The notes beneath the pieces were generated by a model that worked only from the letters and a program-made list of their open reading frames with translations, was not told where the DNA came from and ran no database searches. Position numbers and translations under genes: made by a program. 64,000 nucleotides of DNA from Actinomycetes bacterium (GTDB taxonomy: Bacteria; Actinomycetota; Acidimicrobiia; Acidimicrobiales; Aldehydirespiratoraceae). Below are positions 11,356 through 64,000 of the stretch, piece by piece. The stretch's first letter is position 1; each line of letters opens with the position of its first letter. The stretch spans positions 3,484 through 67,483 of the forward strand of contig JAJRXC010000023.1 of NCBI GenBank assembly GCA_024276495.1, written 5' to 3'.

Positions 11356-11428
11356 TGGGCGCAATGACCCCGAATCGACGACCCGGGCATCCCCACGATA
11401 CCACTCCGGGTGAGACGAGTCGGTGACC

Positions 11429-11869: not shown

Positions 11870-11930
11870 TCGGCGACCGTACCGCGGCCCGATCCCCGAT
11901 TCCGAGGATCATCTGGGCTTTCATGGGCCC

Positions 11931-12866: not shown

Positions 12867-13669
12867 GTCGCGAGGGTGCCCGCACGGCGGGCCTCGGTGA
12901 CCGCCCGCCGGAAGACGAGGATCGCCAGGGGCATCGCGACAACCGCGAAGCCGGCCAGGACCGCGATCTCGAAGGTGACATCGCCGAGTCCGGCGTCGCC
13001 CTGGACGAGCTGTCGCGTCGCCCGCACGCCGTAGGTCGCAGGGACGATCTTGGCGACCGCCGCGAGCCAACCGGGCAGCACCGACAACGGGTAGAGGGCA
13101 CCGGACAGCAACAACGTGAGCTGGCGGGCCGGGCCGCTGAAGGGGTCACCGCGCTTCACCAGCACGATGAAGGCGGCCGAGAAGATGCCGAGGGGAACGA
13201 ACGAGGCCGTGGTGAGCAACAGCAGCGGGATGGCCTTCAGCAGGCCACCGACGGGTATTCCCGCCCCGAAGATGCCGAGACCGACGATCACGAGCACGAT
13301 CGTCTCGGCGATGACGAAGATCGCGGGAACGATGTAGCTGGCCGCCAGAATCGTCCACATCGGCGTAGGGGTCGCGAGGATCGCCTCGAGGGTTCCCTCG
13401 TTTTGCTCCTCTCTGATCTGACCGCCGAAGGACTGCATGCCGACGATCGCGAAGCTCGTCACGATCGCCCCGATCAGGACGAACTCGAAGTATCCGCCAT
13501 CGAGCTCACGGATGCTCTCGGGATCGCCGACGAACTCCCCGATGAAATAGAACGAGATCGCGAAGTACCAGAGATTCAGGATGTTCATGATCATGTTGAT
13601 CTTGTACGACGTGAGGGTGATGAGTTCCTTCTTGCCGATCGCCCGAATCCTCCGAAGGTCCGCCCTCAT
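12860..13669 (-). CDS. ABC-2 type transporter permease
   Basis: Start MRADLRRIRAIGKKEL at 13669 (ATGA overlap with the ATPase stop); six hydrophobic segments; ABC-2 permease pattern. Confidence 0.8.
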   Translation of the reverse strand: MRADLRRIRAIGKKELITLTSYKINMIMNILNLWYFAISFYFIGEFVGDPESIRELDGGYFEFVLIGAIVTSFAIVGMQSFGGQIREEQNEGTLEAILATPTPMWTILAASYIVPAIFVIAETIVLVIVGLGIFGAGIPVGGLLKAIPLLLLTTASFVPLGIFSAAFIVLVKRGDPFSGPARQLTLLLSGALYPLSVLPGWLAAVAKIVPATYGVRATRQLVQGDAGLGDVTFEIAVLAGFAVVAMPLAILVFRRAVTEARRAGTLATY

Positions 13670-48671: not shown

Positions 48672-50909
48672 TCAGGCAGTGATGGTTCGCGTGCCCGCAT
48701 CGAAGTCGAGCTCGAGAACCTGACCGTCGCGTTCCCAGCGGTGGACCGGATCGAGCCGATCGACGGTTCCCCACGGGGAGTCGTGGCGGGGGTGATCCGC
48801 GATCTGGCGCGCGTGCCCGTCCACCACGAAGGGAGCCTCCCAACCGAACGTGAGTGGACCGGCCGTCGGTGAGGTCCACGACACCGAGACCTCGCTGCGT
48901 TCGCCGACCACGATCGGCTCGTCCGCGGTCACCGCAGCGACGAAGTCGTCGAACGAGCCGTCCGCCACCGTGCCCACTTCGACGATCCACACGTTGTCCG
49001 GGCCGCCCTCGGCGACCAGGTCGAACGGTTCGGTCATCCCGTCGGTCGCGTGGATCTCGGGGTCGTAGACCCGCCAACTCGTCGCCCGTCTCGACCACAA
49101 CGCGATGTGGCCGCCACGCTTGGTCCCCATCGTCCAGTTACCGACCTGGCGCACCTCGTCGAAGTGGTTCTGGGGGAAGTACGCGTGGGTGAAGTCGCGG
49201 TAGCGGAACACGAGGCCGAGGATCGGATCGGTGTTCTCGTCGTAGAGCGGTGAGTAGATGTGGATCGCCGTGCGCTCGAACTGAGCGGTGCGCGGCATCG
49301 ATGCCTCCCCCGTCCAGTAGCCGGGGATCGGATCGTCGCGCCAGTTGGTCGATTCGGGGAGCGCCGTCATCGGGTGGGTCGTGAACACCCTCGCATCAGG
49401 GTCGATGGTGGCCTGCCAGATGTGAACCTGGTCGCGCATCTGCCCCTTGCGGTGATCGAGCACGCTGGCCAGGCTCACGTGGGGACTTCGCCACACATAG
49501 GTGTTGGCCTCGTCGAGGCCCCCGAGGTTGAGGATCATGTAGTTGTCGTACACCCACTGTTCGATCCGCTCGACATCGCCGCCCATGACATCGCTGAGCT
49601 GCTTGATCTGGGTGAACACGTCGCCTTCCCACAGCCGGTACCGGTCGGCTTCCGCCGTGCTGATCTCGGCGAGCTGCCAGAGGCCGATGCCGCCGGTGGA
49701 CCACCAGAACGCGAGGTTGGCCGGGTCCTTGAAGTCGTAGCCGAACGGCGCCTCGGGCGAGTCGCTGATCGGTTCGCGCGAGTTCACGTGGATGCCGTGA
49801 CGCTCTCGGGTGACCGTCACCGAATCGTCGCGGGCGATGTCGATGATCAGCTGTGGTGGCCGATACCGATCGGCCAGACCGAAGTAGGTGGCGGTGGTGC
49901 TGTCCGTGGTCTCGAAGCCGCCGGGCGTGCGATCGAAGAGCAGCTTCGCGACGTCGAAGGTGTCCTCGTCGCGCGCCGTCATCTTGTCCTTCTTGTACGT
50001 GCGGCCGTGCGGAGCCACGTAGGCGCCGCGGTGATGGTGGGTCGCCATGTCGAACAGGCACAGATCGAGTCCCCGTGCGGCCGCTTCGACGATCTCGATG
50101 TCGTCGGAGAGCTCGCACAGCATCAGCAACGGGGAGATGTTCTTCGCCATGTACACGTTGGAATGCCACTCGAAGAACCCGAACCGTCCCCGTTCCCTCA
50201 CCCATTCGAGGATCTCGGGTCGGGCCCGCGCCGCCTGCTCGGCGCCGGTGAGGCCGGTGACGGTGAAGACCTCGTCGGGGAAGAACTGACCGGCGAGCAA
50301 CTCGTTGGCCAAGGTGATGATGCGATGGTTCTCGGACCAGTACCAGAGGTGGTCGACGCGGTCCGCGGGAAGCGGATCGTCGTAGCGATACCGGTTGTCG
50401 ATCATGCGTCGGGTGATGGCGTCGATCAGCGCGGGATCGAGACGGGTCATCGGCGTGTCGCCCTGCCCGTGGACCAGCAACCAGTTGAAGTACATGAACT
50501 GGAAGTCGCGGGTGTCGCGCCACTCGTCGAGCTGCGTCCACCGGTCGGCGAATCCGTCGACGGTCACCGCTTCGATGTCCCACTCGTAATCGGGGTCCCG
50601 TCGGGCCAGGGCCAGCTGCACGGCGACACCGGAAGCCGACGCGGGCCGAAGGGTCGCCCCGGCGAACCGCAGGTACTCCTCGACCCGGGCCTGGAAGTAG
50701 GCCTCGTCGACGAGGCCAGGCGATCCGGGAACGGCCAACCCGGCCGGCGCGGGCGCGGTCGTCGGCGGCGGCGGCGGCGGCAAACCCAGCCCGGTCGTGG
50801 GCGGCAGGGTCGTCGTCGGGGCCGCGTCGGGGCCCGGATCCGAGCAGGCGCCGAGCACGGCGAGGCCGGTCGCGCCGAGCAGGAACGATCGCCGATCGAG
50901 AGGATTCAT
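48672..50909 (-). CDS. Tat-signal lipoprotein of unknown function (745 aa)
   Basis: N-terminus MNPLDRRSFLLGATGLAVLGACS (twin-Arg + lipobox); protein-like composition throughout; no family I can assign with confidence. Confidence 0.7.
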   Translation of the reverse strand: MNPLDRRSFLLGATGLAVLGACSDPGPDAAPTTTLPPTTGLGLPPPPPPTTAPAPAGLAVPGSPGLVDEAYFQARVEEYLRFAGATLRPASASGVAVQLALARRDPDYEWDIEAVTVDGFADRWTQLDEWRDTRDFQFMYFNWLLVHGQGDTPMTRLDPALIDAITRRMIDNRYRYDDPLPADRVDHLWYWSENHRIITLANELLAGQFFPDEVFTVTGLTGAEQAARARPEILEWVRERGRFGFFEWHSNVYMAKNISPLLMLCELSDDIEIVEAAARGLDLCLFDMATHHHRGAYVAPHGRTYKKDKMTARDEDTFDVAKLLFDRTPGGFETTDSTTATYFGLADRYRPPQLIIDIARDDSVTVTRERHGIHVNSREPISDSPEAPFGYDFKDPANLAFWWSTGGIGLWQLAEISTAEADRYRLWEGDVFTQIKQLSDVMGGDVERIEQWVYDNYMILNLGGLDEANTYVWRSPHVSLASVLDHRKGQMRDQVHIWQATIDPDARVFTTHPMTALPESTNWRDDPIPGYWTGEASMPRTAQFERTAIHIYSPLYDENTDPILGLVFRYRDFTHAYFPQNHFDEVRQVGNWTMGTKRGGHIALWSRRATSWRVYDPEIHATDGMTEPFDLVAEGGPDNVWIVEVGTVADGSFDDFVAAVTADEPIVVGERSEVSVSWTSPTAGPLTFGWEAPFVVDGHARQIADHPRHDSPWGTVDRLDPVHRWERDGQVLELDFDAGTRTITA

Positions 50910-50931
50910 CGGGTGGGTCCCGGGTCGTCGA

Positions 50932-52293
50932 TCAATCGAAGACCGGCACGGCTGCCATCGCGGTGTCGAGCGAAGCCTGGGACAGCTCGTGGTCCACCAT
51001 CTCTCCGGACAGGAAGTTCTCGTAGGCCGCGAGGTCGAGATGGCCGTGGCCGCACAACGCGGTCAGGATCACCTTCTCCTCACCGCTCTCCTTGCATCGC
51101 AGCGCCTCCCGGACCGCGGCGGCGATCGCGTGGGTCGGCTCGGGGGCCGGGACGATTCCCTCGGTGCGGGCGAACTCGAGCGCAGCGGTGAAGCATTCGG
51201 TCTGGCCGATCGACTCGGCTTCGACCAGGCCGGTCTCGTAGAGGTGCGAGACCAGCGGCGCCATGCCGTGATACCGCAGGCCGCCGGCGTGGATCGGATC
51301 GGGGATGAACGAGTGGCCGAGAGTGTGCATCTTCACCAGTGGCGTCATCCCGGCGGTGTCACCGAAGTCGTAGCGGTACTCGCCCTTGGTGAGGCTGGGG
51401 CAGGCGGCCGGTTCGACGCAGCGAATCGTCGGGTTCATCTTGCCCTTCAGCTTCTCGCGCAGGAACGGAAAGCTCAGGCCACCGAAGTTCGATCCGCCGC
51501 CGGTACATCCGACCAGCACGTCGGGAGTCTCGCCGACCTTCGCGAGCTGCAACAACGCCTCTTCGCCGATCACCGTCTGGTGCAACAGCACGTGGTTGAG
51601 GACCGAGCCCAGCGCGTAACGAGTCGTCGGGTCCTCGACCGCCATCGAGACGGCCTCGGAGATCGCGATTCCGAGGCTGCCGGGATGCTGCGGATCATCG
51701 GCCAGCAGCGAGCGGCCGAACTCGGTGACATCCGACGGGCTCGAGTGCACGCTCGCACCCCAGATCTCCATCATCGTCTTGCGGTGGGGTTTGACCTCGT
51801 ACGACGCCGCGACCTGCCACACCTCGCACTCGATGCCGTATTGGGCGCACGCGAAGGCCAGGGCGCTCCCCCACTGGCCCGCCCCGGTCTCGGTGGTCAG
51901 CTTCGTGATGCCTTCCTGATGGTTGTAGTACGCCTGGGGAACGGAGGTGTTGGGCTTGTGCGACCCGGCCGGGCTGACGCCCTCGTACTTGTAGAAGATC
52001 TTGGCCGGGGTGTCGAGGGCCGCTTCGAGGCGCCGGGCCCGGAACAGCGGGCTGGGACGCCACAGCCGGTAGACGTCGAGAACCTCACCGGGGATGTCGA
52101 TGTAGGACTCCTCGGAGACCTCCTGCATGATGAGCGCCATGGGGAACAACGGCGCCAGGTCGTCGGGGCCGATCGGCTCGCGGGTTCCGGGATGCAGCGG
52201 CGGTGGCGGGGGCGTCGGCAGGTCGGGTACGACGTTGTACCACTGGGTCGGGATCTCGGACTCGTCGAGAAGCACCTTCGTGTAGTTGTCCAT
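50932..52293 (-). CDS. TrpB-like PLP-dependent enzyme (tryptophan synthase beta, TrpB2 type)
   Basis: 453 aa; [16 protein letters not shown] (PLP Lys), [17 protein letters not shown]; long N-terminal extension typical of TrpB2. Confidence 0.9.
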
Positions 52294-52513
52294 TGCCGTC
52301 TCCGATTCCCGTCGCGGTGCCGGTCACCGCAGGGTGCCAGAACTTACCGGGATCGGCGGACGGGTGAGAACCTGACGCCGCCCGTCGCCCTTCCCCCTTC
52401 CCGGCCGACTCGCCACGTTCGCAATGGCGACGACCCTGGCACATGCCCCGCTCATCGTGGCTCCCCGGTGGGCACCATCGAGGTCAGGACCGAACCCGAC
52501 ACGAACGGCCGCC

Positions 52514-52819
52514 TCAGAGGTCGAAGCCGACCGCGGCCACCGGTGTGGTGACGTTCATCTGGGGCGGCCCGGCCATCAGGGGGCCGAAATCGGCCATTGC
52601 GGCCTTCATGGCGTCCCCCTGGCCGTGGTTCTGCATCGCCTCCTGGCCGCTCATCAACGCGAAGAACCAGAAATCGTTCCCCTCGCCACGGAGGTAGGTG
52701 TAGATCTCGACTCCGGGCTCGTCGCGGGCGGCCTCGACCATCCGGGCCAGAACTTCCGCCATCTCGTCGGCCTTCCCGTCTTGGCTGGTGATCGTGCCGA
52801 CCATCGAAACTTTGCTCAT
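52514..52819 (-). CDS. antibiotic biosynthesis monooxygenase (ABM) family protein
   Basis: Start MSKVSMVGTI at 52819 with GAAGGAGA RBS; about 100-aa ferredoxin-like ABM pattern. Confidence 0.65.
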   Translation of the reverse strand: MSKVSMVGTITSQDGKADEMAEVLARMVEAARDEPGVEIYTYLRGEGNDFWFFALMSGQEAMQNHGQGDAMKAAMADFGPLMAGPPQMNVTTPVAAVGFDL

Positions 52820-52936
52820 CTTCGTCTCTCCTTCGCGACCGAGGCCGCTCCGACATCGTCGACGCGGTGCCGACATCACTACCACGAACGAGATCGTCGA
52901 ATTCGACAGACCGGGCGGGATTTCTCGGCTCCGGGT

Positions 52937-55057
52937 TCACCCACCCTCTCCGTAGCCCTCGAAGAGCGACTCCGTCGTGAACCTCCACCGAACGGTTCCC
53001 TGCCGGAACGGGACCGCGAGGTCCATTCCGACCGTGAGCTCGCGCCGGCCCTCGATGACGATGCGCCCGTCCGGTTCGGTGCTCGAAGGCGAGTTCAGCA
53101 TCTCGTCGAGCGAGACCCTCGGTTCCACCGGGCTCAGGAATCCGAACCCGTCGATCAACTGTGTGGTGTAGGGGTCGATCACGAACTCTTCGTCGACGAT
53201 CGAGTCCGAGATGTTCTCGCACGGCACGATGAACGAGTAGATGTCGAGCCGGGTCTGGATCCTGAGGCCGGTGTCACCGACGAGGCGCGGCGGGGAGACC
53301 GAGAACCGGGGCGGCTCGTGGAAGCCGTCGAACTCGAGGCGGGTGGGCGCGGCGCCGCTGGCGGCTCGCCGGATCAGGTCGGCCACGTCACCCGGCCCGA
53401 TCCGCGGCTCGCCGCGGCCGATCCCCTCCACGGTGAAGTCCTCCCAGTACTCGCCCTGGCAGGGCTGATCCGGAGTGGTGAGATCGAGCCGGAATCGCAA
53501 CGGGACGAAGCTCGCGACGTCGGTCACCGTCCCCTCGAGTTGACCGGACTCGGGGTCCACCGTGATCATCACGGATGCGGTCTCGACCCACTCGTCGATG
53601 CCGCGGTCCTCGTAGCGGGCGCCGGGCGGCACCGAGCTGAAGATCTCCCACTGGTCGGGCGCCGGGAACCGGTACTCGATGGTTCCGGTCCACAGGTATC
53701 TGCACTCGAGCTCGATGTCCGTCAACAGGTCGACCGCGTCGCTGATCGCCGAGGCCCTCGCCCCGACCGACGAGATCATCTCTCCTTCGGCGACGACACC
53801 GACGAGGTCCGGGATGTAGTCGCATCGTGGCTTCTTCGCCTGGCGGGCACCGTCGATCACCTCGGAGGCGACACGTTCGTAGGCGTCGCTCAGGACATCG
53901 ATCGCGTCGGAGGCGGTGATGCCGTACTCCCCGCCGAGGGCGATCATCGAGGCCAGACGATCCTTCGTGGCCCGGCTCGGTGCCGAGCGGGCCGCGGCGA
54001 CCGCCGAGTCGAGAAGGGCCTGCAGACGAGCCGACAGCTCCTCGCCGGCTTGTTCCTCGAGGCTGTCGATGGTCTGCTTCAACTCTTCGGCTCTCGCCTG
54101 GGCGTCGGCTTCGGGACTGCCCGAGGTGCCCTCCGAGTTTCCGGGCGGGTCTGACGGCTGCCCGCCCACCGGTGTGTTCAGCGAGAAATGCGGCACCTCG
54201 CACTCGACTCCGGAACCGGCCGGGAGGCACGCGCCGCTTTGCACCCACCGCCCTGCGGCGAGGTCGAACGTCGCGATCGATGTGACCCCGCCGAGCGCCG
54301 TCACATCGTCGAGCCGCAGCGTGAGCGGCGCGGCGGGCTGGACCTCCGCACCGTCCTCGCCGCGCGCCTCGAACGAGAAGACTCGGCTGAGGTGGCCCCC
54401 GTCGACCGGCGCCCACGGGGCCGAGAGGTGCCGGGCCGGCACCTCGGTCACCGTCAGCCAAGTGCCGGCGGGCAGGGCGCCGGCGGGCACGGCCACCGAG
54501 ACGCCTTCGGCCGGGATGATCTGTTGCTCGTCGGATTCGATCACGACCGGTGGCGCGCTCGGCGTCAATTCGACGTCGATGACGTCGTAGCCGCAGATGG
54601 TCACCACGGGGCGGGCGAAGGTCGTGACGTAGCCGAGCGCGCCCACCTCGTACCAGCCCGTCGGATCGGCCGGCCCGGCAGCCTGGCCGCGGCCGTCACC
54701 GGCCTCGCCGTTGACGTCGGGCCACGGCACCAGCGACCCGTCGGCCTTCGTCACGTTCGCGATGAACCGATCCGCCGACGAGGTCGATCCGACCGGCGCA
54801 GCGTCGCCTTCTTCGGAGCCCGGTTGCCCGTCGGTCGACACCGCCCCGTCCGAACTCGATGCCGGGTCGGTGGGGCCGCCGGTTTCCTCGGTGTCCGGGT
54901 CGACGATCGAGCATGCCGCGGTGAGCAGCGCGAACGTCACCAGCGGCACCGCCATCCGACGTCGGCGTGCACCTGCAGATGAGAGCCTGCGCCGCTTGTT
55001 CCACTCCGTTCGTTCGTTCTGACTCGGGTCGGTCTTGTCGAAGACACCGCGCCCCAC
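52937..55057 (-). CDS. large secreted lipoprotein of unknown function
   Basis: Up to 706 aa; likely start at 54955 (MAVPLVTFALLTAACS, lipobox); acidic S/G/D-rich linker then a large uncharacterised domain. Confidence 0.65.
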   Translation of the reverse strand: MGRGVFDKTDPSQNERTEWNKRRRLSSAGARRRRMAVPLVTFALLTAACSIVDPDTEETGGPTDPASSSDGAVSTDGQPGSEEGDAAPVGSTSSADRFIANVTKADGSLVPWPDVNGEAGDGRGQAAGPADPTGWYEVGALGYVTTFARPVVTICGYDVIDVELTPSAPPVVIESDEQQIIPAEGVSVAVPAGALPAGTWLTVTEVPARHLSAPWAPVDGGHLSRVFSFEARGEDGAEVQPAAPLTLRLDDVTALGGVTSIATFDLAAGRWVQSGACLPAGSGVECEVPHFSLNTPVGGQPSDPPGNSEGTSGSPEADAQARAEELKQTIDSLEEQAGEELSARLQALLDSAVAAARSAPSRATKDRLASMIALGGEYGITASDAIDVLSDAYERVASEVIDGARQAKKPRCDYIPDLVGVVAEGEMISSVGARASAISDAVDLLTDIELECRYLWTGTIEYRFPAPDQWEIFSSVPPGARYEDRGIDEWVETASVMITVDPESGQLEGTVTDVASFVPLRFRLDLTTPDQPCQGEYWEDFTVEGIGRGEPRIGPGDVADLIRRAASGAAPTRLEFDGFHEPPRFSVSPPRLVGDTGLRIQTRLDIYSFIVPCENISDSIVDEEFVIDPYTTQLIDGFGFLSPVEPRVSLDEMLNSPSSTEPDGRIVIEGRRELTVGMDLAVPFRQGTVRWRFTTESLFEGYGEGG

Positions 55058-55166
55058 GTCGAACCCCGCGGAATACTGTCCAGCATACGCCCGCGACTCT
55101 CCCGGGCAAGACTCGGGTGGGGTCGGGAAAACGGAAAGAATCCCCGCCGAGGGCGAGGATTCTCAG

Positions 55167-55211
55167 GGGTCGGGCTGAGAGGATTTGAACCTCCGACCTT
55201 CGGTCCCCCAG
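55167..55211 (-). other. partial tRNA-Pro-like 3' fragment (anticodon-loop to acceptor end); candidate att site
   Basis: The minus strand reads CTGGGGGACCGAAGGTCGGAGGTTCAAATCCTCTCAGCCCGAcc. T-arm GGAGG-TTCAAAT-CCTCT, acceptor CAGCCCG with discriminator A (C1:G72 type as in tRNA-Pro). No complementary 5' acceptor strand or D-arm upstream. Confidence 0.55.
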
Positions 55212-55469
55212 GCGCCTAGAGACCTTCTCGCTGCTCCCGCGCCAGGGCAGACAAAACCGCCCCGACGCCTTGTCCCGACTGATCAAGCCCGAGCTTCTCG
55301 ACCCACGGACGTTCACGACCGTTTCGGGTCGTTCTTCGTCGTCTCGCGTCCAAAACGCGTCCAAGGCGTCGCCGAGCGCCTGCGTCCACTTTCCGCCTTA
55401 ACGCTTTGGGCCCGCGCCTAGGTGAGGTACTGTCCGTCGTTCAGACGTTGCGGCGGAACAGGGGCGAAG

Positions 55470-56384
55470 ATGTCGGATACGTCGCAAGGCCAAGGCTGGT
55501 GGCAGGCGACTGACGGGAAGTGGTACCCGCCGACCGAACAACCAGGCAAACAACTTCCGCCTCCGCCCTCGCGACCCACGCCGGTCGCTGTCCCGCCGGC
55601 CGCCCCCGCAGCTGAATCCGGCGGGAATCCACAGTGGGCGGCGGATCTACATCGGTCGCAGTTCGGTTGGCGCGTCGCGTTTCGAGTCCTCTGGTGGGTG
55701 ATTCTCTTCTGGATCGCAGTCCCGTGTTGGGCCGCCACGCTTCCGGACAAGCGTGCGCGCATAGGCGTCTGGATCGCGGTAGCCGTCCTGCTTCTTGCCG
55801 GCGCCCTATCGAACGCCGCCGATTCTGAAGCAGAGCCCGATGCCGCCACTGCCGACACTCCAGCGCCCGACACAGGCACGCCAAGCAGCTCAGGTTCAGC
55901 TTTGGCAGACAACCCGACCAGCACCACCACCACGACGGAGGAACCAGCCGCGACGACCTTCGCCCCACAAACATCAGCGGAGGCAACGACATCCACAGAG
56001 GCACCGGCCACATCGACAACACCCACTGAGCCGACTCGTGATCAGATCGACCAATGGTTCATCGACATGGGCGCTGAAAGCGCGAAGGTGCAGGGCTTCA
56101 TCGACAGCTACGATCGCCTGGAGACCCTCTCAGAGGCCCAGGTTCTGTGCCTGGCCGAAAGAGAGTTGTTCGATATTGAGCGCGTTCGCCAAGTCGCCGA
56201 GCGAGCGCCAACATCCACGATGGCCGAGTTCGGGGCCGGGTTGTTCGATGCCTTTGGCCGGTTCCTCGACGCGTGCGTCGCTGGCGACGCTCCCGCGATG
56301 AGCGCCGAGGTCGCCAACTACGGCGCCAACCTCCGCCACCTCATGGCCGAGGGGGATGCGTGGATTGAAGAGCTCTCCGGCTAG
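55470..56384 (+). CDS. hypothetical membrane protein with N-terminal GWWQATDGKWYPP (DUF2510-like) motif
   Basis: Start MSDTSQGQGWW at 55470; Pro-rich linker, two TM segments, T/S/P-rich region, C-terminal helical domain. Confidence 0.55.
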   Translation: MSDTSQGQGWWQATDGKWYPPTEQPGKQLPPPPSRPTPVAVPPAAPAAESGGNPQWAADLHRSQFGWRVAFRVLWWVILFWIAVPCWAATLPDKRARIGVWIAVAVLLLAGALSNAADSEAEPDAATADTPAPDTGTPSSSGSALADNPTSTTTTTEEPAATTFAPQTSAEATTSTEAPATSTTPTEPTRDQIDQWFIDMGAESAKVQGFIDSYDRLETLSEAQVLCLAERELFDIERVRQVAERAPTSTMAEFGAGLFDAFGRFLDACVAGDAPAMSAEVANYGANLRHLMAEGDAWIEELSG

Positions 56385-56499
56385 AGAACCAACGTAGGAC
56401 GTGCGTTCCTGAGGAAGAACGGGTCGTACAGCGTCGCTGCACGACCGTAGATCCTTGTCGGCCTCAAGTCGGCGAACCTCTCTGGCCCGATGGGGCGAC

Positions 56500-56826
56500 C
56501 TACATGATCCGTTGCCGACGCCGGTCGAGTATCTGACGTTCGGCGAGCGAGAAGCCGCGGAAGGGAGCGAAGTAGGACTGCGATACCTCCGCGTCGATGC
56601 CGAAAGACTCCGTAGATCGCGTGAAGTCTCCACCGTGAATGCGACTGGCGATGAGATGAGCGACTGCGTCTAGGTCGCGGGGCCAGTCCTCGTCGTCTAT
56701 CTCTGGACAGCCGACCCCTCTCGTGTAGGAGCGGATGAGCGCTCGGGCAAGCGACAGCTCCGCCGCGGAATACGCGGTCGACGTACCGAATTCGTGGCGA
56801 AGATCGAACGCGTCGAGAGCAGCCAC
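56500..56826 (-). CDS. phage head-tail connector (gp6-like adaptor) candidate
   Basis: 108 aa immediately downstream of the capsid gene; size, position and AELSLARALIRSYT-type N-terminal helix typical of gp6-like adaptors. Confidence 0.5.
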   Translation of the reverse strand: MAALDAFDLRHEFGTSTAYSAAELSLARALIRSYTRGVGCPEIDDEDWPRDLDAVAHLIASRIHGGDFTRSTESFGIDAEVSQSYFAPFRGFSLAERQILDRRRQRIM

Positions 56827-56831
56827 AACTA

Positions 56832-57713
56832 TCAGCCGGTGATGCCGCGGAGCATGACCACGGCGGCAGGGTTGAGCGATGCAACGTCGTAGCGGGCAAC
56901 GACTCGGATGGCTTGCTGGTCGTAGTCGCCGAACGTTTGGTCGAGGATCTTCACCGACGGGGATAGGTCACGGGCGACGGCGATCTGGGAGAAGTCGGCG
57001 AGCACGATCTCGGACTCGTCGGAACCTGCGCCGCCGTCGATCGGAAGTCGATTGGTGATGGTCACCGGCAGGCCGAGAAGTTGGAACGCGCCCTCGCGGG
57101 TGGGGTCGGGCTGGAGTTGGTAACGGTCCTGGAGGTCTTTGATCTTGCGAAGGTTGACGAAGTCCCGAGAGGGCATGAGCCACCGCATCCGTTCGGCATC
57201 CGCGTTCGATCCCATCGCGAGGCCGACGGCGTCGTGCAGGTCGTCGAGGGCGATCACGCCGACGCCGGTCAGCTCTTGGGTGCCGGTCCAGTTCACGATC
57301 CCTTCTGGTTCGGTGCCGGATGGGGTGCCGCCGTCCCCGGTCAGGAACGCCTGATCGATCTGAGACGCAACGTCGCGCACCATCCGGTCCCGCAACGCGG
57401 CTTCGAGAGCGACGACGGACTGGCGGGCCAGCTCGTTGCTGAACCGGGTCAGTGACTTCACGGATTTCAGCGTCGAGGGCAACAGCGTGATCTCGCCGAA
57501 ACCGGCGTCCACTTCGTCGATCAACTCGTTCTCGCCGTGCCACGACGGCGTCGTCATCGACGTGAGCTTCGGCACCCGAACCGGGGAACCGTCCGTGTCG
57601 AAGATCCGCGGCCCCGCAGCGAGGAACACGCTCGCTGTCTCCAACGGTTGGACAAGTATCGCCTGAACCTGCTCTTGCGTCAGTTCTGCGGCGGTGGTGG
57701 TATCTGCGGCCAT
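56832..57713 (-). CDS. phage major capsid protein, HK97 fold
   Basis: 293 aa; HK97-family pattern (...TLLPSTLKSVKSLTRFSNELARQS...DQAFLTGDG...RYQLQPDPT...LLGLPV...). Confidence 0.85.
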   Translation of the reverse strand: MAADTTTAAELTQEQVQAILVQPLETASVFLAAGPRIFDTDGSPVRVPKLTSMTTPSWHGENELIDEVDAGFGEITLLPSTLKSVKSLTRFSNELARQSVVALEAALRDRMVRDVASQIDQAFLTGDGGTPSGTEPEGIVNWTGTQELTGVGVIALDDLHDAVGLAMGSNADAERMRWLMPSRDFVNLRKIKDLQDRYQLQPDPTREGAFQLLGLPVTITNRLPIDGGAGSDESEIVLADFSQIAVARDLSPSVKILDQTFGDYDQQAIRVVARYDVASLNPAAVVMLRGITG

Positions 57714-57853
57714 TGGCCCTCCAAGGTCTCGAACGGATCATCTCGTTCGCCTTGGCCGCCAGGGCCTCGCAGCGTCTCGTCGGCACCAGGCCGACCCGTG
57801 TGATTATATCTCCTAGAAGGTCAGGCGCTTGTCCATAGAGCAGGAGCGGGGCG

Positions 57854-58567
57854 TTGAAGGACGTACGGGTAGACCGCGAGGGAGACTTCCGATGCTGGAA
57901 ATGCGGAGGCAAGAACTTTCTCGCTAAGCGGACAGGGCGGGCGCACGTCCTTGGCTACGTCACAGTTGGAATCGGGGCGCTGGCCACTCAGAAGAAGCTG
58001 AAATGCCAGGGGTGCGGCAGCTACAACCAGGTCGGCAACGCCAAGCCCTACGTTCGCGACCTTCCGAAACCAAGAGGGATCATCAAGGACACTAAGCCGA
58101 TGAACAAGGTCATTGACCCGGAACTCGTTGGGATCACTCCGGACGACCCAGCCTGGACCCGCGGTATGTCAGACGAAGAGATCCGCGTCATGAACGAACG
58201 CAGGCTTCCGGCCGCTACTCCCAGCCCTGGCCCGGATTCCACGCCTGACGATACGGCGACCGAAGGAAAGTGCTGCCCATTCTGCGCTGAGACGATCAAG
58301 GCCGCCGCCATCAAGTGCAAGCATTGCGGGGAGTTCCTCGCCGACTCGACGAAGTCAGAGTTCGATGTTGTGCTCGTGAGCGCCGGAGAGAATAAGATCC
58401 AGGTCATCAAGGAACTCCGAAGTCTCGTTCCCAACCTCGGCCTCAGAGAGGCAAAGGATCTCGTCGACCATGCCCCGACTCCGGTGGCGCTCGGTCTTCC
58501 CGAGGGTTCGGCCGAGCGCCTCAAACTCTTGCTGGAACATCACGGCGCGATCATCGAATTGCGATAG
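57854..58567 (+). CDS. zinc-ribbon protein fused to ribosomal protein L7/L12 C-terminal domain
   Basis: TTG start with AGGAG RBS. Two CxxC...CxxC ribbons (CWKCG...CQGCG; CPFCA...CKHCG). The C-terminal 70 aa EFDVVLVSAGENKIQVIKELRSLVPNLGLREAKDLVDHAPTPVALGLPEGSAERLKLLLEHHGAIIELR align with the bL12 CTD. Confidence 0.75.
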   Translation: MKDVRVDREGDFRCWKCGGKNFLAKRTGRAHVLGYVTVGIGALATQKKLKCQGCGSYNQVGNAKPYVRDLPKPRGIIKDTKPMNKVIDPELVGITPDDPAWTRGMSDEEIRVMNERRLPAATPSPGPDSTPDDTATEGKCCPFCAETIKAAAIKCKHCGEFLADSTKSEFDVVLVSAGENKIQVIKELRSLVPNLGLREAKDLVDHAPTPVALGLPEGSAERLKLLLEHHGAIIELR

Positions 58568-58597
58568 CCCGATTGCCCCTGAGGCGAAAGTTCTCGA

Positions 58598-59032
58598 CTA
58601 CCCAGCCATGCGACGAAGCGTCCCAGCAAGATCGACGTGCGCCACCGGGTGGCCCTGGCTGCCCTGGTCGATGTCGCCTCGGGGTCGGACGGCGAGGTGG
58701 GGCTTGGCTGCGACGAGGCTGTCGGCCGCGGCGCGTATCGCTGCGGCGTTGGGGAGGCCGTCGTCGTCGAGCAGGGTCGCTGGGTCGGTGAGGTCGAGGA
58801 GGTCAGCCGGGTCGGCAAGGACGCCGTTGAGGGTCGTTCTGAGGGTGAGGTCGAGGAGTCGATCGGCGAGGAGGTCGGCCCGCTTGGCCTTCACCCGGGC
58901 TTCGGCCGCTTCGGATCGGAGCTGTGCGACGTACTCCCGCGGGAACGTCTCGGGCGCATCATCGACGTTCTTGTCGCCGTCGACGGGCTCGTCGCTGGTC
59001 TGGTCGTCGTCGGTGGCTGGGTTGTCGGTCAC
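58598..59032 (-). CDS. phage scaffolding protein candidate
   Basis: GTG at 59032 (GAGGAGA RBS, GTGA overlap with MuF stop); acidic N-terminus then coiled-coil EYVAQLRSEAAEARVKAKRADLLADRL; located between the MuF and capsid genes. Confidence 0.6.
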   Translation of the reverse strand: MTDNPATDDDQTSDEPVDGDKNVDDAPETFPREYVAQLRSEAAEARVKAKRADLLADRLLDLTLRTTLNGVLADPADLLDLTDPATLLDDDGLPNAAAIRAAADSLVAAKPHLAVRPRGDIDQGSQGHPVAHVDLAGTLRRMAG

Positions 59033-59604
59033 TGTAGGTCTCCTCGTAGAACAGGCCCGGGCACGCACGCGCATCCAGGGTGGGAAAACATGTCGGTGTC
59101 GGGCGGCAGGATCGGGCCGAGTAGCGACGTGCAGAGCTTGCAGGGATTTTCGTCGGGAACTCGGGTCCAGCCGACGACCTGGCCCGAGCGGGCCATGGCC
59201 GCGGTCATCGTTGCTCGACCGGCCGACGCGGATTCGTGCTGCACGATGCGGCGCACGGACGCGGCTGCCTGTTCGGCCTCACGAACGAGGGCGGTTTCGA
59301 ACGCGGCGGAGAGACGATCGGCGTCGAGTTCGCTTCCGATGCCGAACGCGGCGACCACGGTGCCGGTCTCGGCTGCGAGTAGATCGAGAAGCGTTCTTTC
59401 GGCGCGGATAGCTTGACGGCGCGCCGACGCCAGGAGTACGCCGATGAACACGTCGATTGTGTCGTCTTCGTCGAGGTCATCGAGATCGAGGGTGCGCAGC
59501 GCGGCCGCGACGGCTGCTTCGGCCTCCTTGGCGAGGGCGTCCTGCCACCGGCGCAGAAGAGCCGTCCCTGCCCGCGACAGGCCGGGGTCGGTCGCGGTCG
59601 TCAC
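59029..59604 (-). CDS. phage minor head protein, MuF / SPP1 gp7 family
   Basis: 191 aa; C-terminal PCKLC...SHPGCACVP matches the C-x2-C...H-P-x-C-x-C motif of the family; follows portal. Confidence 0.7.
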   Translation of the reverse strand: MTTATDPGLSRAGTALLRRWQDALAKEAEAAVAAALRTLDLDDLDEDDTIDVFIGVLLASARRQAIRAERTLLDLLAAETGTVVAAFGIGSELDADRLSAAFETALVREAEQAAASVRRIVQHESASAGRATMTAAMARSGQVVGWTRVPDENPCKLCTSLLGPILPPDTDMFSHPGCACVPGPVLRGDLQ

Positions 59605-60920
59605 GAGATCGCTCCGAGGTCGATGCCGAGGCTGTCGAGGGTTTCAGCGCGGCGAGAAGCGCGCATGGCCTCGATCTGTTGCGGGCTGTAGCCGAGGTCT
59701 TCGGCGAGTTGCGCGAACGGGATCCCGATGTCGGCCTTCTTGAGCGCGGCGTCGGCCGCTTGTGCGACCGTCGGGGTTTCCGGGTCACGCCACACGGTTT
59801 CGAGCCGGTCGAGGCCATGGTGTCCGTCGCGGACCAGCATCGCGAGGCGCATGGCGTCTTCCCATCCTCCGCCGAAGATGCGTTGGCGACGACGAACTTT
59901 TTGCACGAGCCCGGCCTCGGCGGCTCGGATGGCGTCGGCGGAGGCGGGCTGGTCCCGTTGCAGGCCGAGGTACGCGGGAGGGGTGGAGGTCAGCGACGCG
60001 ATCTGGCGGCTGATCTGATCAAGCGCCGCGATGTAGCCGGACAGGTCGGCTTCGGGAAATTGGCCGAATTTCGATTCGGGTGACTCGCTGAGCCAGACGC
60101 GGCCAGCGATTTGGGAGAAGGTGGCGAGTTCGTTGCCGTCGTCGTCGACCGGTAGATCGACACCGGTCATCCATCGCCGCGGCATCGACGCGAATTCCGA
60201 CGACGTGAGGAGATCGGTCGCCAGCTTCGCGGATGCGTCGATGAGCGATATGACTTCGTCGAACTCGGGTCGGCCGTCGAGGTCATCGAGCGATGGCCGG
60301 TTCGCGAACGCGACGACCGGGGTGAGCCCGAGCGGGTTCTCGATCGGATCGCTTCGTTGAGTCCACGCGCTCGCGCTCAACGGTGCGGGACCGTCTGGCA
60401 CCTTCGATTTGGTCTGCCACCGCGTGATCACATCGGGTCCGTACACGGTCGCATACCCGCGCTGCTCTGCCTGGTCGGTCCAAATCTTCAGTGCGACACG
60501 TACGGCGCCGGTGGCCGGGTCGCGATCGGTGATCATCTGCGTCGGCGACTCAGGCCGGATCGTCGGCTGGCCGTCAGCGTCAGCCCACACGCTCACGTAG
60601 GCCCGACCGTGGATAAGCGCCGACTGGTGAACCAGCTGCGATGCCTCATCGAGGGAGTTCGACTGCCAAAAGTCCCACAGGTCATCGACGGCGTCCTCGC
60701 CGACCCGAAACCCGGATACGTCGAGTCGTTGCTCGACCGCCGACACGATCAGCGACGCCCACGCCGGGATCACCGGGAACAAGACCGGCCGAGCCGTCTT
60801 GATTTCCGAAGGCAGCAGCCCGGTCGGCAGACGGCCGTCGTGGTACTTCCGGGCCCGGGCGAGCGCACCCTGCGCCTCGCTCAGCCGCGTTCCGAGCCGT
60901 TCGATCGCCTCAGCCGTCAT
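59601..60920 (-). CDS. phage portal protein (SPP1 gp6-like)
   Basis: Start MTAEAIERL at 60920 (ATGA overlap with TerL stop); about 440 aa; portal-family pattern and position. Confidence 0.85.
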   Translation of the reverse strand: MTAEAIERLGTRLSEAQGALARARKYHDGRLPTGLLPSEIKTARPVLFPVIPAWASLIVSAVEQRLDVSGFRVGEDAVDDLWDFWQSNSLDEASQLVHQSALIHGRAYVSVWADADGQPTIRPESPTQMITDRDPATGAVRVALKIWTDQAEQRGYATVYGPDVITRWQTKSKVPDGPAPLSASAWTQRSDPIENPLGLTPVVAFANRPSLDDLDGRPEFDEVISLIDASAKLATDLLTSSEFASMPRRWMTGVDLPVDDDGNELATFSQIAGRVWLSESPESKFGQFPEADLSGYIAALDQISRQIASLTSTPPAYLGLQRDQPASADAIRAAEAGLVQKVRRRQRIFGGGWEDAMRLAMLVRDGHHGLDRLETVWRDPETPTVAQAADAALKKADIGIPFAQLAEDLGYSPQQIEAMRASRRAETLDSLGIDLGAIS

Positions 60921-62368
60921 CCGATCACCACCATCTTCCTGGAGCGCTTCGCCCCGTTCTGCGCATGCCACGCGGCGCGGTCGAACGCGATGACCGCGCT
61001 GACCGCTGCGTCTATCTTTCGACGACTGTTCTTGCGTTCTTTGGTGATCAGGTCGCCGTGGGCAGTCGACTTCGCCACCGCGTTGCGCATGTGCGTCGCC
61101 AGGACCTGATCGCCGTCATGGGAAACGGTGCCCTCAGAGATCGCAGCGAACAACCGGTCGCACGCCGGCCCCATTCTCGATGGGATATTCGTCGGCAGCT
61201 CGAGAACACGACCGGGCCAGCGTCGGCCCCACTCCTCGATCTCGCTCCGCCAACCCCACGGATCGCAGCTCAACTCGCGCACGTCGAAAGTCTCCATCAC
61301 TTCAGTCACACGATCATCGACATCGGCTCTCGGAACCCGCCACCGAGGATCGTTCGGGGCTTGCCAAGCACCGAGCATGAACAGATGCGGATCGTCGATC
61401 GTGCACCCAACCAGAGTCGTGCTGTCGCCGGACGCTGATCCGTCGAACGCGACCGTGATCGGCCCCTCAATCATCCGTGACGGGTCGGCCAGCGGCTCCC
61501 ACACACCCCACGGCAGCCAAGCATCGAGCACGCCGGTCCACTCGTTCATGTGGTAGCGGCGAAAGACCGCCTCGCGGGTTGTCTCGACGACGGTGCGGAG
61601 ATGCTCGACCGCCAAAATGTCGCCAAGGCCGGGATTGGCTGCTGCCCACGCCGACTCATCACGCACGTCCGCTCCGGGCGGAGCTGACCATTCCCACAAC
61701 CGAATCGACGCGTCACCAGCGCGTCCCTTCTCCAGCAGACGCCAGAGAAGCGAGTCGCGATCGCCGCCCGCTGTCGTCAACCCGAGGATCAGCGGAGCCG
61801 GTCGCGTCCCGGTCGCGAGGGCCATGGCGTCCCACACGGCCTCGTCGACTTCGTGAACTTCGTCAGCAATCGCCATGGTCGGATTGCGGCCCTGCAACCG
61901 AGCGGCCGTCGCCGGGAGCACCTCCAACGACGACCCCGAAGCCGGATGCAGAATCCGCTTCTGGAAGACCTGACAGCAGCCGAACAGCCGGGCGTCGAGT
62001 TCGACCATCCGAGCACACGTATCGAACAGATGCTTCGCCGTGCGTTCATCGGTCGACACAATCACCACCGACCGGCCCTCGCCCTGCTCCGCATCGGCAA
62101 ACAAGCCGAACAACGCCAGACACGCCGCGAGCCCTGACTTGCCGTTCTTGCGGCCCATCGTGATCAACGCCTGCCGAGGCCGATCATCAAACAAACCCCG
62201 CACAATGTCGACCTGCCAGTCACGCAGCCGCAACCGCTCCCCCGCCTCCAGACTATGCGGCAACCGACAAAACTCAGCAACGAAACCGAGCACACGATCC
62301 GCCCCACCCGCCGGAAGTGCCGACAAATCGAGCGATTCGACCGGATCGACCTTCGGACCCGCCCTCAT
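60917..62368 (-). CDS. phage terminase large subunit
   Basis: Start MRAGPKVD at 62368 (GGAGG RBS, ATGA overlap with HNH stop); Walker A-like GRKNGKSG, IADEVHE Walker B, C-terminal nuclease region. Confidence 0.9.
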   Translation of the reverse strand: MRAGPKVDPVESLDLSALPAGGADRVLGFVAEFCRLPHSLEAGERLRLRDWQVDIVRGLFDDRPRQALITMGRKNGKSGLAACLALFGLFADAEQGEGRSVVIVSTDERTAKHLFDTCARMVELDARLFGCCQVFQKRILHPASGSSLEVLPATAARLQGRNPTMAIADEVHEVDEAVWDAMALATGTRPAPLILGLTTAGGDRDSLLWRLLEKGRAGDASIRLWEWSAPPGADVRDESAWAAANPGLGDILAVEHLRTVVETTREAVFRRYHMNEWTGVLDAWLPWGVWEPLADPSRMIEGPITVAFDGSASGDSTTLVGCTIDDPHLFMLGAWQAPNDPRWRVPRADVDDRVTEVMETFDVRELSCDPWGWRSEIEEWGRRWPGRVLELPTNIPSRMGPACDRLFAAISEGTVSHDGDQVLATHMRNAVAKSTAHGDLITKERKNSRRKIDAAVSAVIAFDRAAWHAQNGAKRSRKMVVIG

Positions 62369-62742
62369 TCGACCTCCAGCCGAGTGTGTAATGCGGACCA
62401 AGGCTGAACGGCGGGTCTCAGGGCGGATCGGTTGAGGGTGTCCCCCCTGCCTTCGGGTGTGCGTGGCGTCGCTCCTCGTCGGCTGTTGCAGCTTCTGCAG
62501 ACGACTGCGAGATCGTCGAGGGAGCGGGCTGGCCAGCGGAGGTGGTCGGCGGTGAGGTCTTGGGTTGCTCCGCAGTCCTGGCACCACGGCTGAGAACGAC
62601 GAGCACGAACGCTGAGGCGTCGCCACCGGCTGCCGTATCCTCTGCTGGCTGCGGATGGTCGGCGATCTGGCAGGGCGCAGTCGACGCATCGGCTCGCGGT
62701 GGTCGGCTGGCCGCAGGCGAGGCAGGGCTTGCGGACCGTCAT
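62365..62742 (-). CDS. HNH endonuclease
   Basis: Start MTVRKPCLACG at 62742 (ATGA overlap with the upstream ORF); CxxC...CxxC zinc sites and DLTADHL...CRSCNSRRG HNH motif. Confidence 0.8.
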   Translation of the reverse strand: MTVRKPCLACGQPTTASRCVDCALPDRRPSAASRGYGSRWRRLSVRARRSQPWCQDCGATQDLTADHLRWPARSLDDLAVVCRSCNSRRGATPRTPEGRGDTLNRSALRPAVQPWSALHTRLEVE

Positions 62743-62993
62743 CGCGGCGGCCTTTCGTTGAGCCATGACTCAACTTGATCGCCGAGGTCGTGCTCCAGAG
62801 CGCGGTGGGCGAGCTCGATCAGGCCAGGCTCGACGGCCGCGTGCCCTTCGGGATCGTGGACCTTGCCCCAGTCGCGCACTTCGGCAAAGTCGACGGCCGC
62901 TCGACCGTGCACCAGCTCGAACGCGGCTTGGGCACCCAGGAGCCAGTGGGTCGCCCCTGCGGCAAGCGCCTCGGCGGCCGTATCGGCACTCAC
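62739..62993 (-). CDS. hypothetical phage protein (84 aa)
   Basis: GTG at 62993, GTGA overlap with the upstream ORF; translationally coupled in the packaging operon; no family recognised (small terminase not excluded). Confidence 0.45.
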   Translation of the reverse strand: MSADTAAEALAAGATHWLLGAQAAFELVHGRAAVDFAEVRDWGKVHDPEGHAAVEPGLIELAHRALEHDLGDQVESWLNERPPR

Positions 62994-63571
62994 TGCGCGT
63001 CCTCAAGGATTTGTGTCGCTTCCTCGACAACCTGTTCCCCAAGGTGTCGCTGTTGTAGCTCGCGATAGGCGAAAAGCCCAGGGACATACTTGGCGAACTC
63101 GGGATCGTTGGCCTGAAGCCACTGCAGAACCTCCCAGTCCCCAAGCGGCTCACGCGGGTAGACGGTGCAGAACGCGCGCCATCCGGCGATGACGTACGTG
63201 ACCGCGTCGAGGGCGGCCAGATGCATCGCATCTTCGGCTTCGGCGTTCTTGGACACAGTTCTCCCTATGGACGCACCGGAAGAGGTGTGCCCGTGGTCGG
63301 ATGTTCTTGGGGGTGTCTCACTCGCACTCGATCTCCCAACTGACCCCGTTACTCGGCCAGCCACAGCCCCTGTTTCGTCGGAAGGGATCAGATCCGTCGG
63401 CCGCTGGTCTCCGGCTCCCAGTGTTCCCGGCCTCGATGTCGAGGCTCGGTCGGTGAGCTGCTCCGGAGGGCGGAGGTGCCCCGTGAGGGGTCCGCATTCG
63501 TCCGCTGTGTCCCCGTTGAGGGTTGAGTGAGCAGATTTCGTCCAGCCCTGCTGGGGTTCCATGTCGTTCAC
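62990..63571 (-). CDS. hypothetical phage protein (start uncertain)
   Basis: 193-aa track ORF. The C-terminal about 80 aa (MHLAALDAVTYVIAGW...) look protein-like. The N-terminal half is low-complexity. GGAAGGTG RBS before the ATG at 63571. Confidence 0.4.
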   Translation of the reverse strand: MNDMEPQQGWTKSAHSTLNGDTADECGPLTGHLRPPEQLTDRASTSRPGTLGAGDQRPTDLIPSDETGAVAGRVTGSVGRSSASETPPRTSDHGHTSSGASIGRTVSKNAEAEDAMHLAALDAVTYVIAGWRAFCTVYPREPLGDWEVLQWLQANDPEFAKYVPGLFAYRELQQRHLGEQVVEEATQILEDAQ

Positions 63572-63676
63572 CTTCCGGACTAGGATTAGTTCCGGGCCTG
63601 GCCTCCGTTTCTTGATGGTTCGGGGATTTGGTCTTCACGGCTCCGGGAGTTGCTGCTCTCGGGGCCGTTCTGGTTC

Positions 63677-63880
63677 TCAGCGGCGATTTGCTGCCGCGTC
63701 GGCCTGGGCGCGCTCGTCGAGCCACGCCAGCACGTTCACCATTCGGAAGCGCACGTGCCGGCCGAGCTTCACTGCCGGAGGACCGGTGCCGCTGTAGCGC
63801 CACTCGTAGATCGTGGAGCGGGGCACGCCAAGCCACTCGGCTAGCTCGGCAGGGCTTAGAAACTCCTGGGGTGAGTCCAT
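63677..63880 (-). CDS. helix-turn-helix DNA-binding protein, excisionase (Xis/HTH_17) family
   Basis: Start MDSPQEFLSPAELAEWLGVPRSTIYEWRYSGTGPPAVKLGRHVRF at 63880 with GGGAGA RBS; classic excisionase-family winged HTH. Confidence 0.75.
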   Translation of the reverse strand: MDSPQEFLSPAELAEWLGVPRSTIYEWRYSGTGPPAVKLGRHVRFRMVNVLAWLDERAQADAAANRR

Positions 63881-64000
63881 CGAATTCTCCCTCTGTTCCT
63901 GACGATGCCGACTATTGCGGATGGATGCCGTATCATCCATAGATGGCAGAGAAACGTGCATTCCGGGAACTCCCTCCTCACGCGAAGGCGGGATACCCAA

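Follow-up and report, generated by a model that had tools for sequence, protein, structure and literature searches.

A tail-less head-and-packaging element in a tRNA-Pro gene, a likely capsid-forming phage satellite from a widespread family of Actinomycetota

Gene content of the element

The window analysed here is a stretch of 64,000 nt (positions 1-64000) from contig JAJRXC010000023.1 with a G+C content of about 68%. Its right end, from position 55212 onwards, is occupied by an integrated element that encodes the head and DNA-packaging proteins of a phage and is bounded on the left by a displaced piece of a tRNA-Pro gene. We consider it likely that this element is a capsid-forming, tail-borrowing phage satellite of about 10-11 kb, and an intact member of a family distributed across the phylum Actinomycetota. 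Proteins of the window were compared with Pfam, PHROG, NCBIfam and PADLOC profiles; labels such as L003 denote related or tRNA-Pro-bearing loci. The head and packaging region reads as follows, in the direction of transcription:

63677-63880, minus strand: excisionase/AlpA-like HTH_17 DNA-binding protein, 67 aa (PF12728, 2.2e-14; phrog_66 excisionase, 1.5e-12)
62990-63562, minus strand: open reading frame (ORF) of 190 aa with no family match, in the slot that holds AAA_25, primase, wHTH or DUF3631 replication genes in relatives
62739-62993, minus strand: small ORF of 84 aa with no family match, candidate small terminase subunit by position
62365-62766, minus strand: HNH endonuclease, 133 aa (phrog_144, 5e-14), ATGA overlap with TerL
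60917-62368, minus strand: TerL, 483 aa (phrog_9, 4.9e-94; both Pfam TerL domains)
59601-60920, minus strand: portal of SPP1 type, 439 aa (PF05133, 1.3e-29; phrog_104, 1.8e-126)
59029-59604, minus strand: MuF/VG15-like head morphogenesis protein, 191 aa (PF25310 VG15, 2.7e-6), without a protease domain
58598-59032, minus strand: scaffolding protein, 144 aa (phrog_4708, 2.5e-6)
56832-57713, minus strand: major capsid protein of the HK97 family, 293 aa, without a delta domain (PF05065, 1.7e-39)
56500-56826, minus strand: head-to-tail adaptor, 'C1', 108 aa
56422-56446, minus strand: terminator-like hairpin ending the head operon (11-bp stem and T-rich tail), 54 nt past the adaptor stop at 56500

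The content, order and coordinates of these genes agree with the initial annotation, which had been made from the sequence without database searches: the HTH, HNH, TerL, portal, MuF, scaffold and capsid calls are now backed by Pfam or PHROG matches. The minus-strand genes stand as given there, but a plus-strand gene at 57854-58567, antisense to the operon, had been overlooked. The HTH protein also scores 4e-4 against Phage_AlpA, just under the cut-off of that family.

Overlaps of 4 nt (ATGA/GTGA) link the HNH, TerL, portal, MuF and scaffold genes, and these five genes align end to end with their relatives, free of frameshifts; the scaffold, for instance, is 44-48% identical to the genes in the same position of L003 and L005. 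Since the alignments run over the full length, there is no sign of gene decay, and the frameshifts that the initial annotation had named as evidence of a dead remnant were not seen in the head and packaging ORFs.

Searched singly, the 108-aa protein encoded beside the capsid gene is matched by neither Pfam nor PHROG. The profile built from its family (24 members, A3), however, matches the 'Adaptor protein (gp9)' of PDB entries 8zdj/8zdl, which is dodecameric, at E = 2.7e-6, and the earlier call of a 'gp6-like connector' at 56500-56826 therefore stands. Homologs of this adaptor lie 3' of the capsid gene in nearly all relatives. A second connector gene, 'C2', is found in some relatives and not in the window; its profile has no match in the PDB.

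Scans with Pfam, PHROG and other families revealed no tail, holin or lysis genes within 55212-64000, as had been proposed. A prohead protease domain is likewise absent from the proteins of the element, also in agreement with the first reading: the MuF/VG15-like protein covers only the N-terminal MuF third of the 'protease-MuF fusion' PHROGs, which is their non-protease part. No primase-replicase was found in the window; in the relatives, the corresponding slot is taken by AAA_25, Toprim, Prim-Pol or DUF3631 genes. In most relatives an ORF of 65-115 aa lies just before HNH, with no detectable homology among these ORFs, and no conserved small terminase family emerged from the small ORFs adjoining HNH.

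Integration into tRNA-Pro

The left boundary of the element is marked by two features:

55167-55211, minus strand: attR, the last 45 nt of tRNA-Pro(GGG) in displaced position (anticodon loop through 3' end), with the element to its right
55136-55164, minus strand: native intrinsic terminator (13-bp stem and T tail) just 3' of the tRNA-Pro end, in the chromosomal flank outside the element

The reverse complement of 55167-55208, a 42-mer, occurs as an exact match in 102 marine metagenome contigs (pattern scan), and in 14 of the 20 contigs tested with ARAGORN it forms the 3' part of tRNA-Pro(GGG). Aligned to native tRNA-Pro loci, the window shows about 92% identity from 55128 up to 55211, where the alignment ends; the part outside the tRNA, 55128-55166, is matched at about 92% identity by the sequence that flanks intact tRNA-Pro genes of marine contigs. 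Because the homology to native loci stops at 55211, the DNA to the right of this position is inserted, and the tRNA-Pro att fragment of the initial annotation is thereby corroborated. Rfam gave no match for the fragment, as expected for half a tRNA, and a whole tRNA gene was not found in the window. The window has one copy of a 27-mer taken from the fragment, where shuffles predict zero. A second att copy, which would place the gene for a membrane protein at 55470-56384 outside the element, was not found in the window; with a single copy of the fragment, this gene lies inside the element.

These marine bacteria have a hot spot of integration in the tRNA-Pro(GGG) gene (L079, L113, L066, L082, L085, L103, L119, L128). 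Six of the 20 tested contigs contain the tRNA-Pro 3' fragment without a tRNA gene. Fragment and full tRNA are separated by 4.4 kb in L079 and by 2.2 kb in L113, which indicates very small islands.

Related loci and conserved architecture

Relatives of the element were gathered by portal and capsid searches, genome-context look-ups, capsid alignment (IMG/VR) and a tblastn matrix. A scan of genome contigs yielded only loci of Kitasatospora, with 37% identity. More than 60 independent loci possess the same gene order, although their proteins are only about 50-70% identical; they are situated at different att sites in different orders of Actinomycetota, and none of them has tail genes. The consensus order from tblastn, with facultative members in parentheses, is integrase, (repressor), HTH_17, variable or replication genes, HNH, TerL, portal, MuF, scaffold, (variable slot), capsid, adaptor, (second small gene), end of the element. 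Immediately past the adaptor gene, or past the second small gene, come host genes or att repeats. The annotated gene lists of the relatives contain no tail, tape-measure, holin or lysin Pfam families. In IMG/VR, 51 loci share the order, and 47 of these are on contigs of at most 11.6 kb, the others on contigs of 13.4, 14.0, 21.1 and 26.4 kb. Host genes lie on either side of four related loci, L003, L165 and L170 among them, which are likewise devoid of tail genes. The loci with informative ends are:

L003: 25-nt direct repeat with copies 10,436 nt apart; relA on one side, an MFS transporter gene and hisS on the other
L165: in Mycobacteroides abscessus (GCA_003582785.1), about 10 kb, host genes on both sides; same gene order, capsid 64% identical to that of the window
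L170: about 10 kb, host genes on both sides
L005: host gene nucS 3' of the adaptor gene
L007: contig of 10,905 nt with a tRNA T-arm repeat at its start and end
L010: tRNA-Gly at the start, followed by the integrase
L166 and L167: unit-length contigs with a serine recombinase or Prim-Pol gene

The initial annotation had asked whether related genomes hold the module with or without tails; in the more than 60 loci the module is tail-less. The same note had regarded the lack of tail genes as designed because the att site is retained. A retained att site is compatible with an internal deletion of a tail module, and the att site alone is therefore no proof of design. The idea of design itself can be upheld, but on other grounds: the same tail-less order recurs in a large number of diverged loci. 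The interpretation as a satellite is based on the comparison with relatives, not on the retained att site.

The position of the right end can be estimated from the relatives. The span from integrase to adaptor is 8.9-10.0 kb (n = 20, the integrase being terminal in these), and the window ends 120 nt upstream of the HTH gene. From these spans and the shared gene order, the integrase and the intact tRNA-Pro gene are predicted about 0.6-2.5 kb past 64000, a narrower estimate from synteny being 0.6-1.3 kb, which would give a total of about 11 kb. These values bear on the idea of an ordinary prophage, complete but atypical in gene order, with its tail and lysis genes situated past the window, in the interval from the HTH gene to the integrase. 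Such an arrangement could be hidden by the position of the right end outside the window. In 15 relatives, however, the HTH homolog is only 550-1321 nt away from a terminal integrase, with nothing except a repressor-like gene in between; the HTH-to-adaptor span of the window (7.38 kb) falls within the range of the family (7.2-8.1 kb), and tail genes are absent throughout from the complete relatives that lie between host genes. A complete prophage is consequently the least probable of all explanations considered here, and we regard it as extremely improbable.

The capsid is the most conserved protein of the family, with 64-74% identity between the window and its relatives. The capsid search brought up at least 2,662 clusters, for which the named hosts are M. 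abscessus, Mycolicibacterium palauense, Geodermatophilus and Isoptericola. Among 50,697 phage records, on the other hand, the best capsid match reaches 29% identity, and the only matches to actinobacterial records are 11-kb EPIP satellites (26%). The adaptor has no match among sequenced phages. Many actinophages have portal and TerL proteins that are 34-40% identical to those of the window, and the best phage relatives of TerL are phiC31, phiBT1 and TG1 (34-35%). Judged by sequence comparison, none of the sequenced actinophages has a close relative of this capsid; the confinement of the capsid lineage to elements of about 10 kb would fit a long-term existence as a satellite.

The discrepancy between a complete set of head genes and the missing tail could also be explained by degeneration: a temperate siphovirus may have lost its tail and lysis modules by internal deletion, leaving a defective prophage whose head genes are decaying. 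Internal deletions can spare att sites, clearly decayed relatives exist (L158, in the same tRNA-Pro, and L038), and the window element has no recognisable replication gene or second connector gene. Nevertheless, independent deletions would not converge on one tail-less layout of about 10 kb in more than 60 diverged loci with differing att sites and host orders. The traits of a defective prophage are missing from the window element, with its intact, translationally coupled ORFs and an architecture conserved in relatives; a decaying remnant would also leave unexplained the strong conservation of the capsid and the terminator placed after the adaptor gene. Moreover, neither the 50,697 phage records nor the IMG/VR matches include a full-size phage with this capsid lineage. 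We consider a remnant very unlikely. The proposal of the initial annotation, a candidate capsid-forming satellite and not a truncated prophage, is thus supported by the tail-less relatives, the intact genes and the terminator.

L158 retains, at 1101-1983, the tRNA 3' part, an integrase fragment, the C-terminal third of the capsid (48%) and the adaptor (51%). In L049 (21 kb), a second, unrelated integrative element at 9632-13413, with an integrase, an excisionase-like gene and a 560-aa ORF, follows in tandem after the adaptor end, again without tail genes.

Mobility, packaging ends and a proposed cycle

In six metagenomic contigs (L014, L019, L022, L037, L056 and L058) the order is permuted from adaptor via integrase to HNH: the adaptor gene joins the integrase region directly and HNH is situated at the far end. 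This order is what would be expected for an excised or packaged genome, and L058 has a terminal overlap of 20 nt. Between members of the family, the type of integrase (tyrosine or serine) and the replication module (AAA_25, Prim-Pol, Toprim or DUF3631) are exchanged, and the head module is kept.

The ends of the permuted contigs point to one further feature of the window:

62414-62451, minus strand: putative cos/packaging-end region in the 3' tail of the HNH gene (tentative)

L014, L037, L019 and L022 end 9-23 nt past a conserved GGGGGA..CC motif that aligns at 62414-62451, and L014 and L037 start 34-44 nt before the TerL start codon. The nearest phage relatives of TerL, phiC31, phiBT1 and TG1, are cos phages. 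Contig ends at the HNH/TerL junction and a TerL of phiC31 type together suggest, tentatively, a cos site at about 62414-62451. L014 and L037, two 10-kb contigs from related samples, share a near-identical integrase-to-HNH arm, whereas their TerL-to-adaptor arms differ; the change occurs precisely at the HNH/TerL junction. Modular recombination of family members with one another at the putative cos site is thereby indicated.

A cycle can be proposed as follows. The element integrates in the 3' half of tRNA-Pro(GGG), of which the attR side is observed in the window. Upon infection or induction of a helper siphovirus, it would be excised by an integrase, presumed to be encoded past 64000, together with the HTH_17 protein. 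The coupled HNH-TerL-portal-MuF-scaffold operon and the capsid and adaptor genes on the same strand, all present in the window, would then give rise to small procapsids. In the next step, which is tentative, HNH and TerL may cleave the DNA at a cos-type site close to the HNH/TerL junction and fill the heads with unit lengths of about 10-11 kb. Finally, by analogy with phage-inducible chromosomal islands of the capsid-forming kind (cf-PICIs) and with the Streptomyces satellites Ando and MulchRoom, the portal-bound adaptor ring would be completed by the stopper and a pre-assembled tail of the helper, and the particles would be released by helper lysis. In this cycle the element would depend on its helper.

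Alternatively, the element might make capsids and not use helper tails at all, as a domesticated head module comparable to a gene transfer agent, a tail-less DNA-transfer particle or an anti-phage interference module. In favour of this, no stopper was recognised in the window element, the adaptor has no detectable relative in sequenced phages, and the family is very widespread, as a trait from which the hosts profit might be. The possession of integrases, excisionase-like genes, att repeats and swappable replication modules and the varied loci, in contrast, are the behaviour of a selfish mobile element and not of a fixed domesticated locus; the permuted unit-length contigs fit an excised, packaged genome; and the only known role of the retained dodecameric head-to-tail adaptor is to receive neck and tail proteins. 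Such a use of the capsids therefore seems unlikely to us, though less so than a decayed prophage, and a tail-borrowing satellite is preferred.

Some observations count against a tail-borrowing satellite. The integrase, attL and whatever lies past 64000 are outside the window, and a small terminase, a head-closure or stopper protein and a replication protein were not recognised in the part of the element that lies within it. The decayed relatives demonstrate that some members of the family are remnants. The ends of the permuted contigs are also explicable by branching of the assembly graph at a mosaic boundary, as L014 equals L037 up to the break and differs thereafter. Lastly, induction, packaging and transfer with a helper are a proposal for this lineage, and PMC10654092 says as much explicitly of the Mycobacterium members.

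Comparison with known satellites

Capsid-forming satellites that borrow tails are well established, both as cf-PICIs (PMC10085698) and as Ando, MulchRoom and MiniFlayer of Streptomyces (PMC13587820, PMC10690885). According to the summaries of Alqurainy et al. (2023) in PMC10085698 and PMC10690885, cf-PICIs have been reported from Proteobacteria and Firmicutes only and have a median size of 14 kb; their core genes include a prohead protease, TerS and pri-rep. Their order of integrase, regulator, replication genes, HNH, TerL, portal, capsid and head-tail adaptor resembles that of the present family, as do the small size and the lack of tail and holin genes; cf-PICIs depend on helper tails, and the window element would do so too. 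In contrast to the cf-PICIs as described there, the window element has no detected protease, TerS or pri-rep, measures about 10-11 kb and carries a head module of L5/SPP1 type (MuF/VG15 and a separate scaffold). Of the features by which SatelliteFinder recognises cf-PICIs (PMC10085698), the element possesses an AlpA-type regulator/excisionase and the combination of HNH, TerL, portal and capsid, with no tail or holin gene in 55212-64000; a primase-replicase and a prohead protease were not found in the window. Because protease, TerS and pri-rep were not found, we do not file the element as a cf-PICI, though it appears to work like one.

Closer counterparts are found within the Actinomycetota. 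Abad et al. (2023, mSystems, PMC10654092) described Mycobacterium 'candidate PICIs' as regions that contain an integrase together with a major capsid gene and are not a full prophage; some have terminase, scaffold and helicase genes, members with a tyrosine integrase are located at tRNA genes, and none has a tail. SatelliteFinder (de Sousa et al. 2023, PMC10085698) likewise classed part of them as 'PICI'. The M. abscessus locus L165, with its matching gene order and capsid, would fit the definition of those authors, and the window element likewise has a major capsid gene in a small region that is not a prophage. The assembly of L165 was not found in a search of the supplements of PMC10654092. 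The window element differs from the Mycobacterium candidates in its marine, probably acidimicrobial host, its site in tRNA-Pro(GGG), its accessory genes and the lack of a PEST toxin system.

The Streptomyces satellites MulchRoom, MiniFlayer and Ando share with the element an actinobacterial host, TerL, portal, scaffold, capsid and adaptor genes, and the lack of tail and lysis genes (PMC10690885, PMC13587820); MulchRoom and Ando have a tyrosine integrase (PMC10690885, PMC13587820). The linear map of MulchRoom (TerL, portal, scaffold, capsid, adaptor, stopper, integrase) matches the permuted map of the family studied here. In the homology test, however, only the portal of MulchRoom is detectably related to that of the window (27%). 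The genomes of the Streptomyces satellites are about 13-15 kb in size (Ando 13 kb, MulchRoom 14.8 kb), have about 47-51% G+C, which matches their virulent BE-cluster helpers, and possess direct terminal repeats of 1-1.6 kb, whereas the window element has 64.9% G+C, close to the 68.5% of its host, and is probably of cos type. Small capsids on helper tails have been seen for Ando (PMC13587820). The EPIPs of Mycolicibacterium aichiense (PMC12822802), with which phiRv1 and phiRv2 of M. tuberculosis are grouped as close known systems (PMC12822802, PMC10085698), are also actinobacterial, have a size of 11 kb and encode an integrase, a scaffold, an HK97-type capsid and a head-tail adaptor. They differ in their distant capsid (26% identity to that of the window), a serine integrase, a small terminase, a tape-measure-like gene and the absence of an annotated TerL or portal.

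In light of these published systems, the expectation of the initial annotation that an actinobacterial counterpart of capsid-forming satellites would be notable was overstated: the Mycobacterium candidates (PMC10654092) and the Streptomyces satellites MulchRoom, MiniFlayer and Ando (PMC10690885, PMC13587820) precede it. The element is a clean example of a large and already predicted family, not a first; with its precisely mapped attR and its marine host it adds one member and no new category. New is the host, which is marine and probably belongs to Acidimicrobiia, a class for which no report of a capsid-forming satellite was found in the literature searched. Whether the lineage represents an independent, phylum-wide group of capsid-forming satellites is in our opinion an evenly balanced question. 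Such a group would be distinct from cf-PICIs and from the MulchRoom group, with capsid and adaptor lineages of its own that are absent from sequenced actinophages and with unit-length cos packaging that relies on HNH and TerL, neither TerS nor prohead protease being recognisable, and would reach into marine Acidimicrobiia.

If the elements are mobilised as proposed, they would constitute a very common phage-dependent route of gene transfer across Actinomycetota, from M. abscessus to Geodermatophilus and marine Acidimicrobiia, given the at least 2,662 capsid clusters. They would represent ready-made small capsids that accept foreign tails, which would be relevant to phage therapy of M. abscessus and to questions of host range as they arise for cf-PICIs. 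Their variable accessory-gene slots and their compact, minimal set for head assembly and packaging could also be put to practical use.

Accessory genes

The element has two variable accessory slots, one between scaffold and capsid and the other between adaptor and att, and in the window each is occupied by a plus-strand gene:

57854-58567, plus strand: antisense accessory gene in the slot between scaffold and capsid, 237 aa, with zinc ribbons plus the C-terminal domain of ribosomal L7/L12 (PF00542, 1.1e-19)
55470-56384, plus strand: accessory membrane protein, 304 aa; WW/GxWY motif at the N terminus, transmembrane helices predicted at two places, C-terminal domain without assigned function; converges on the head operon

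The genes that fill the slot between scaffold and capsid (57714-58597 in the window) are unrelated from one family member to the next and often lie on the opposite strand: L010 (7855-8700), L005 (2430-2687) and L170 (9608-9859) each carry a different reverse-strand gene there. In this respect the slot resembles the accessory-gene hot spots of other satellites. The L7/L12 C-terminal domain normally recruits translational GTPases. The only named full-length homolog of the 237-aa protein, 51% identical, comes from a metagenome-assembled genome (MAG) of Acidimicrobiales, where it is chromosomal and lies beside rpmB, rpmG and murI. In view of this chromosomal homolog, the element seems to have captured a host gene carrying an L7/L12 domain. 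With PADLOC, the accessory genes, this one included, could not be convincingly assigned to defence.

The membrane protein at 55470-56384, which the initial annotation had placed before the att site, is confirmed by two hydropathy peaks, corresponding to two hydrophobic segments. It has no solid Pfam, PADLOC or PHROG match. In relatives, the position between adaptor and att end is taken by unrelated small genes, such as one for a DUF2510 protein in L167.

Host and flanking region

A mycothione reductase encoded in the window (630 bits, above the equivalog cut-off of 501) and a gcvH-odhI gene pair identify the host as an actinobacterium, in agreement with the high-GC actinobacterium proposed initially. 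The L12 domain of the accessory protein at 57854-58567 is about 59% identical to bL12 of Acidimicrobiia; taken together with the homolog in the Acidimicrobiales MAG and the marine tRNA-Pro matches, this suggests that the host is probably a marine member of Acidimicrobiia.

To the left of the att site, the stretch 48672-55162 contains two large ORFs (745 and 706 aa) with signal-peptide or lipoprotein N-termini. They are on the strand of the head genes and were considered as candidate tail proteins. This was rejected: they have no PHROG, Pfam or NCBIfam match, show a host-like G+C content at third codon positions and are situated beyond the native tRNA flank. The distance from conserved genes (about 46.9-48.6 kb) to the tRNA flank is 6.6 kb in the window and about 2.5 kb in the related contig L077, which indicates a lineage-specific stretch.

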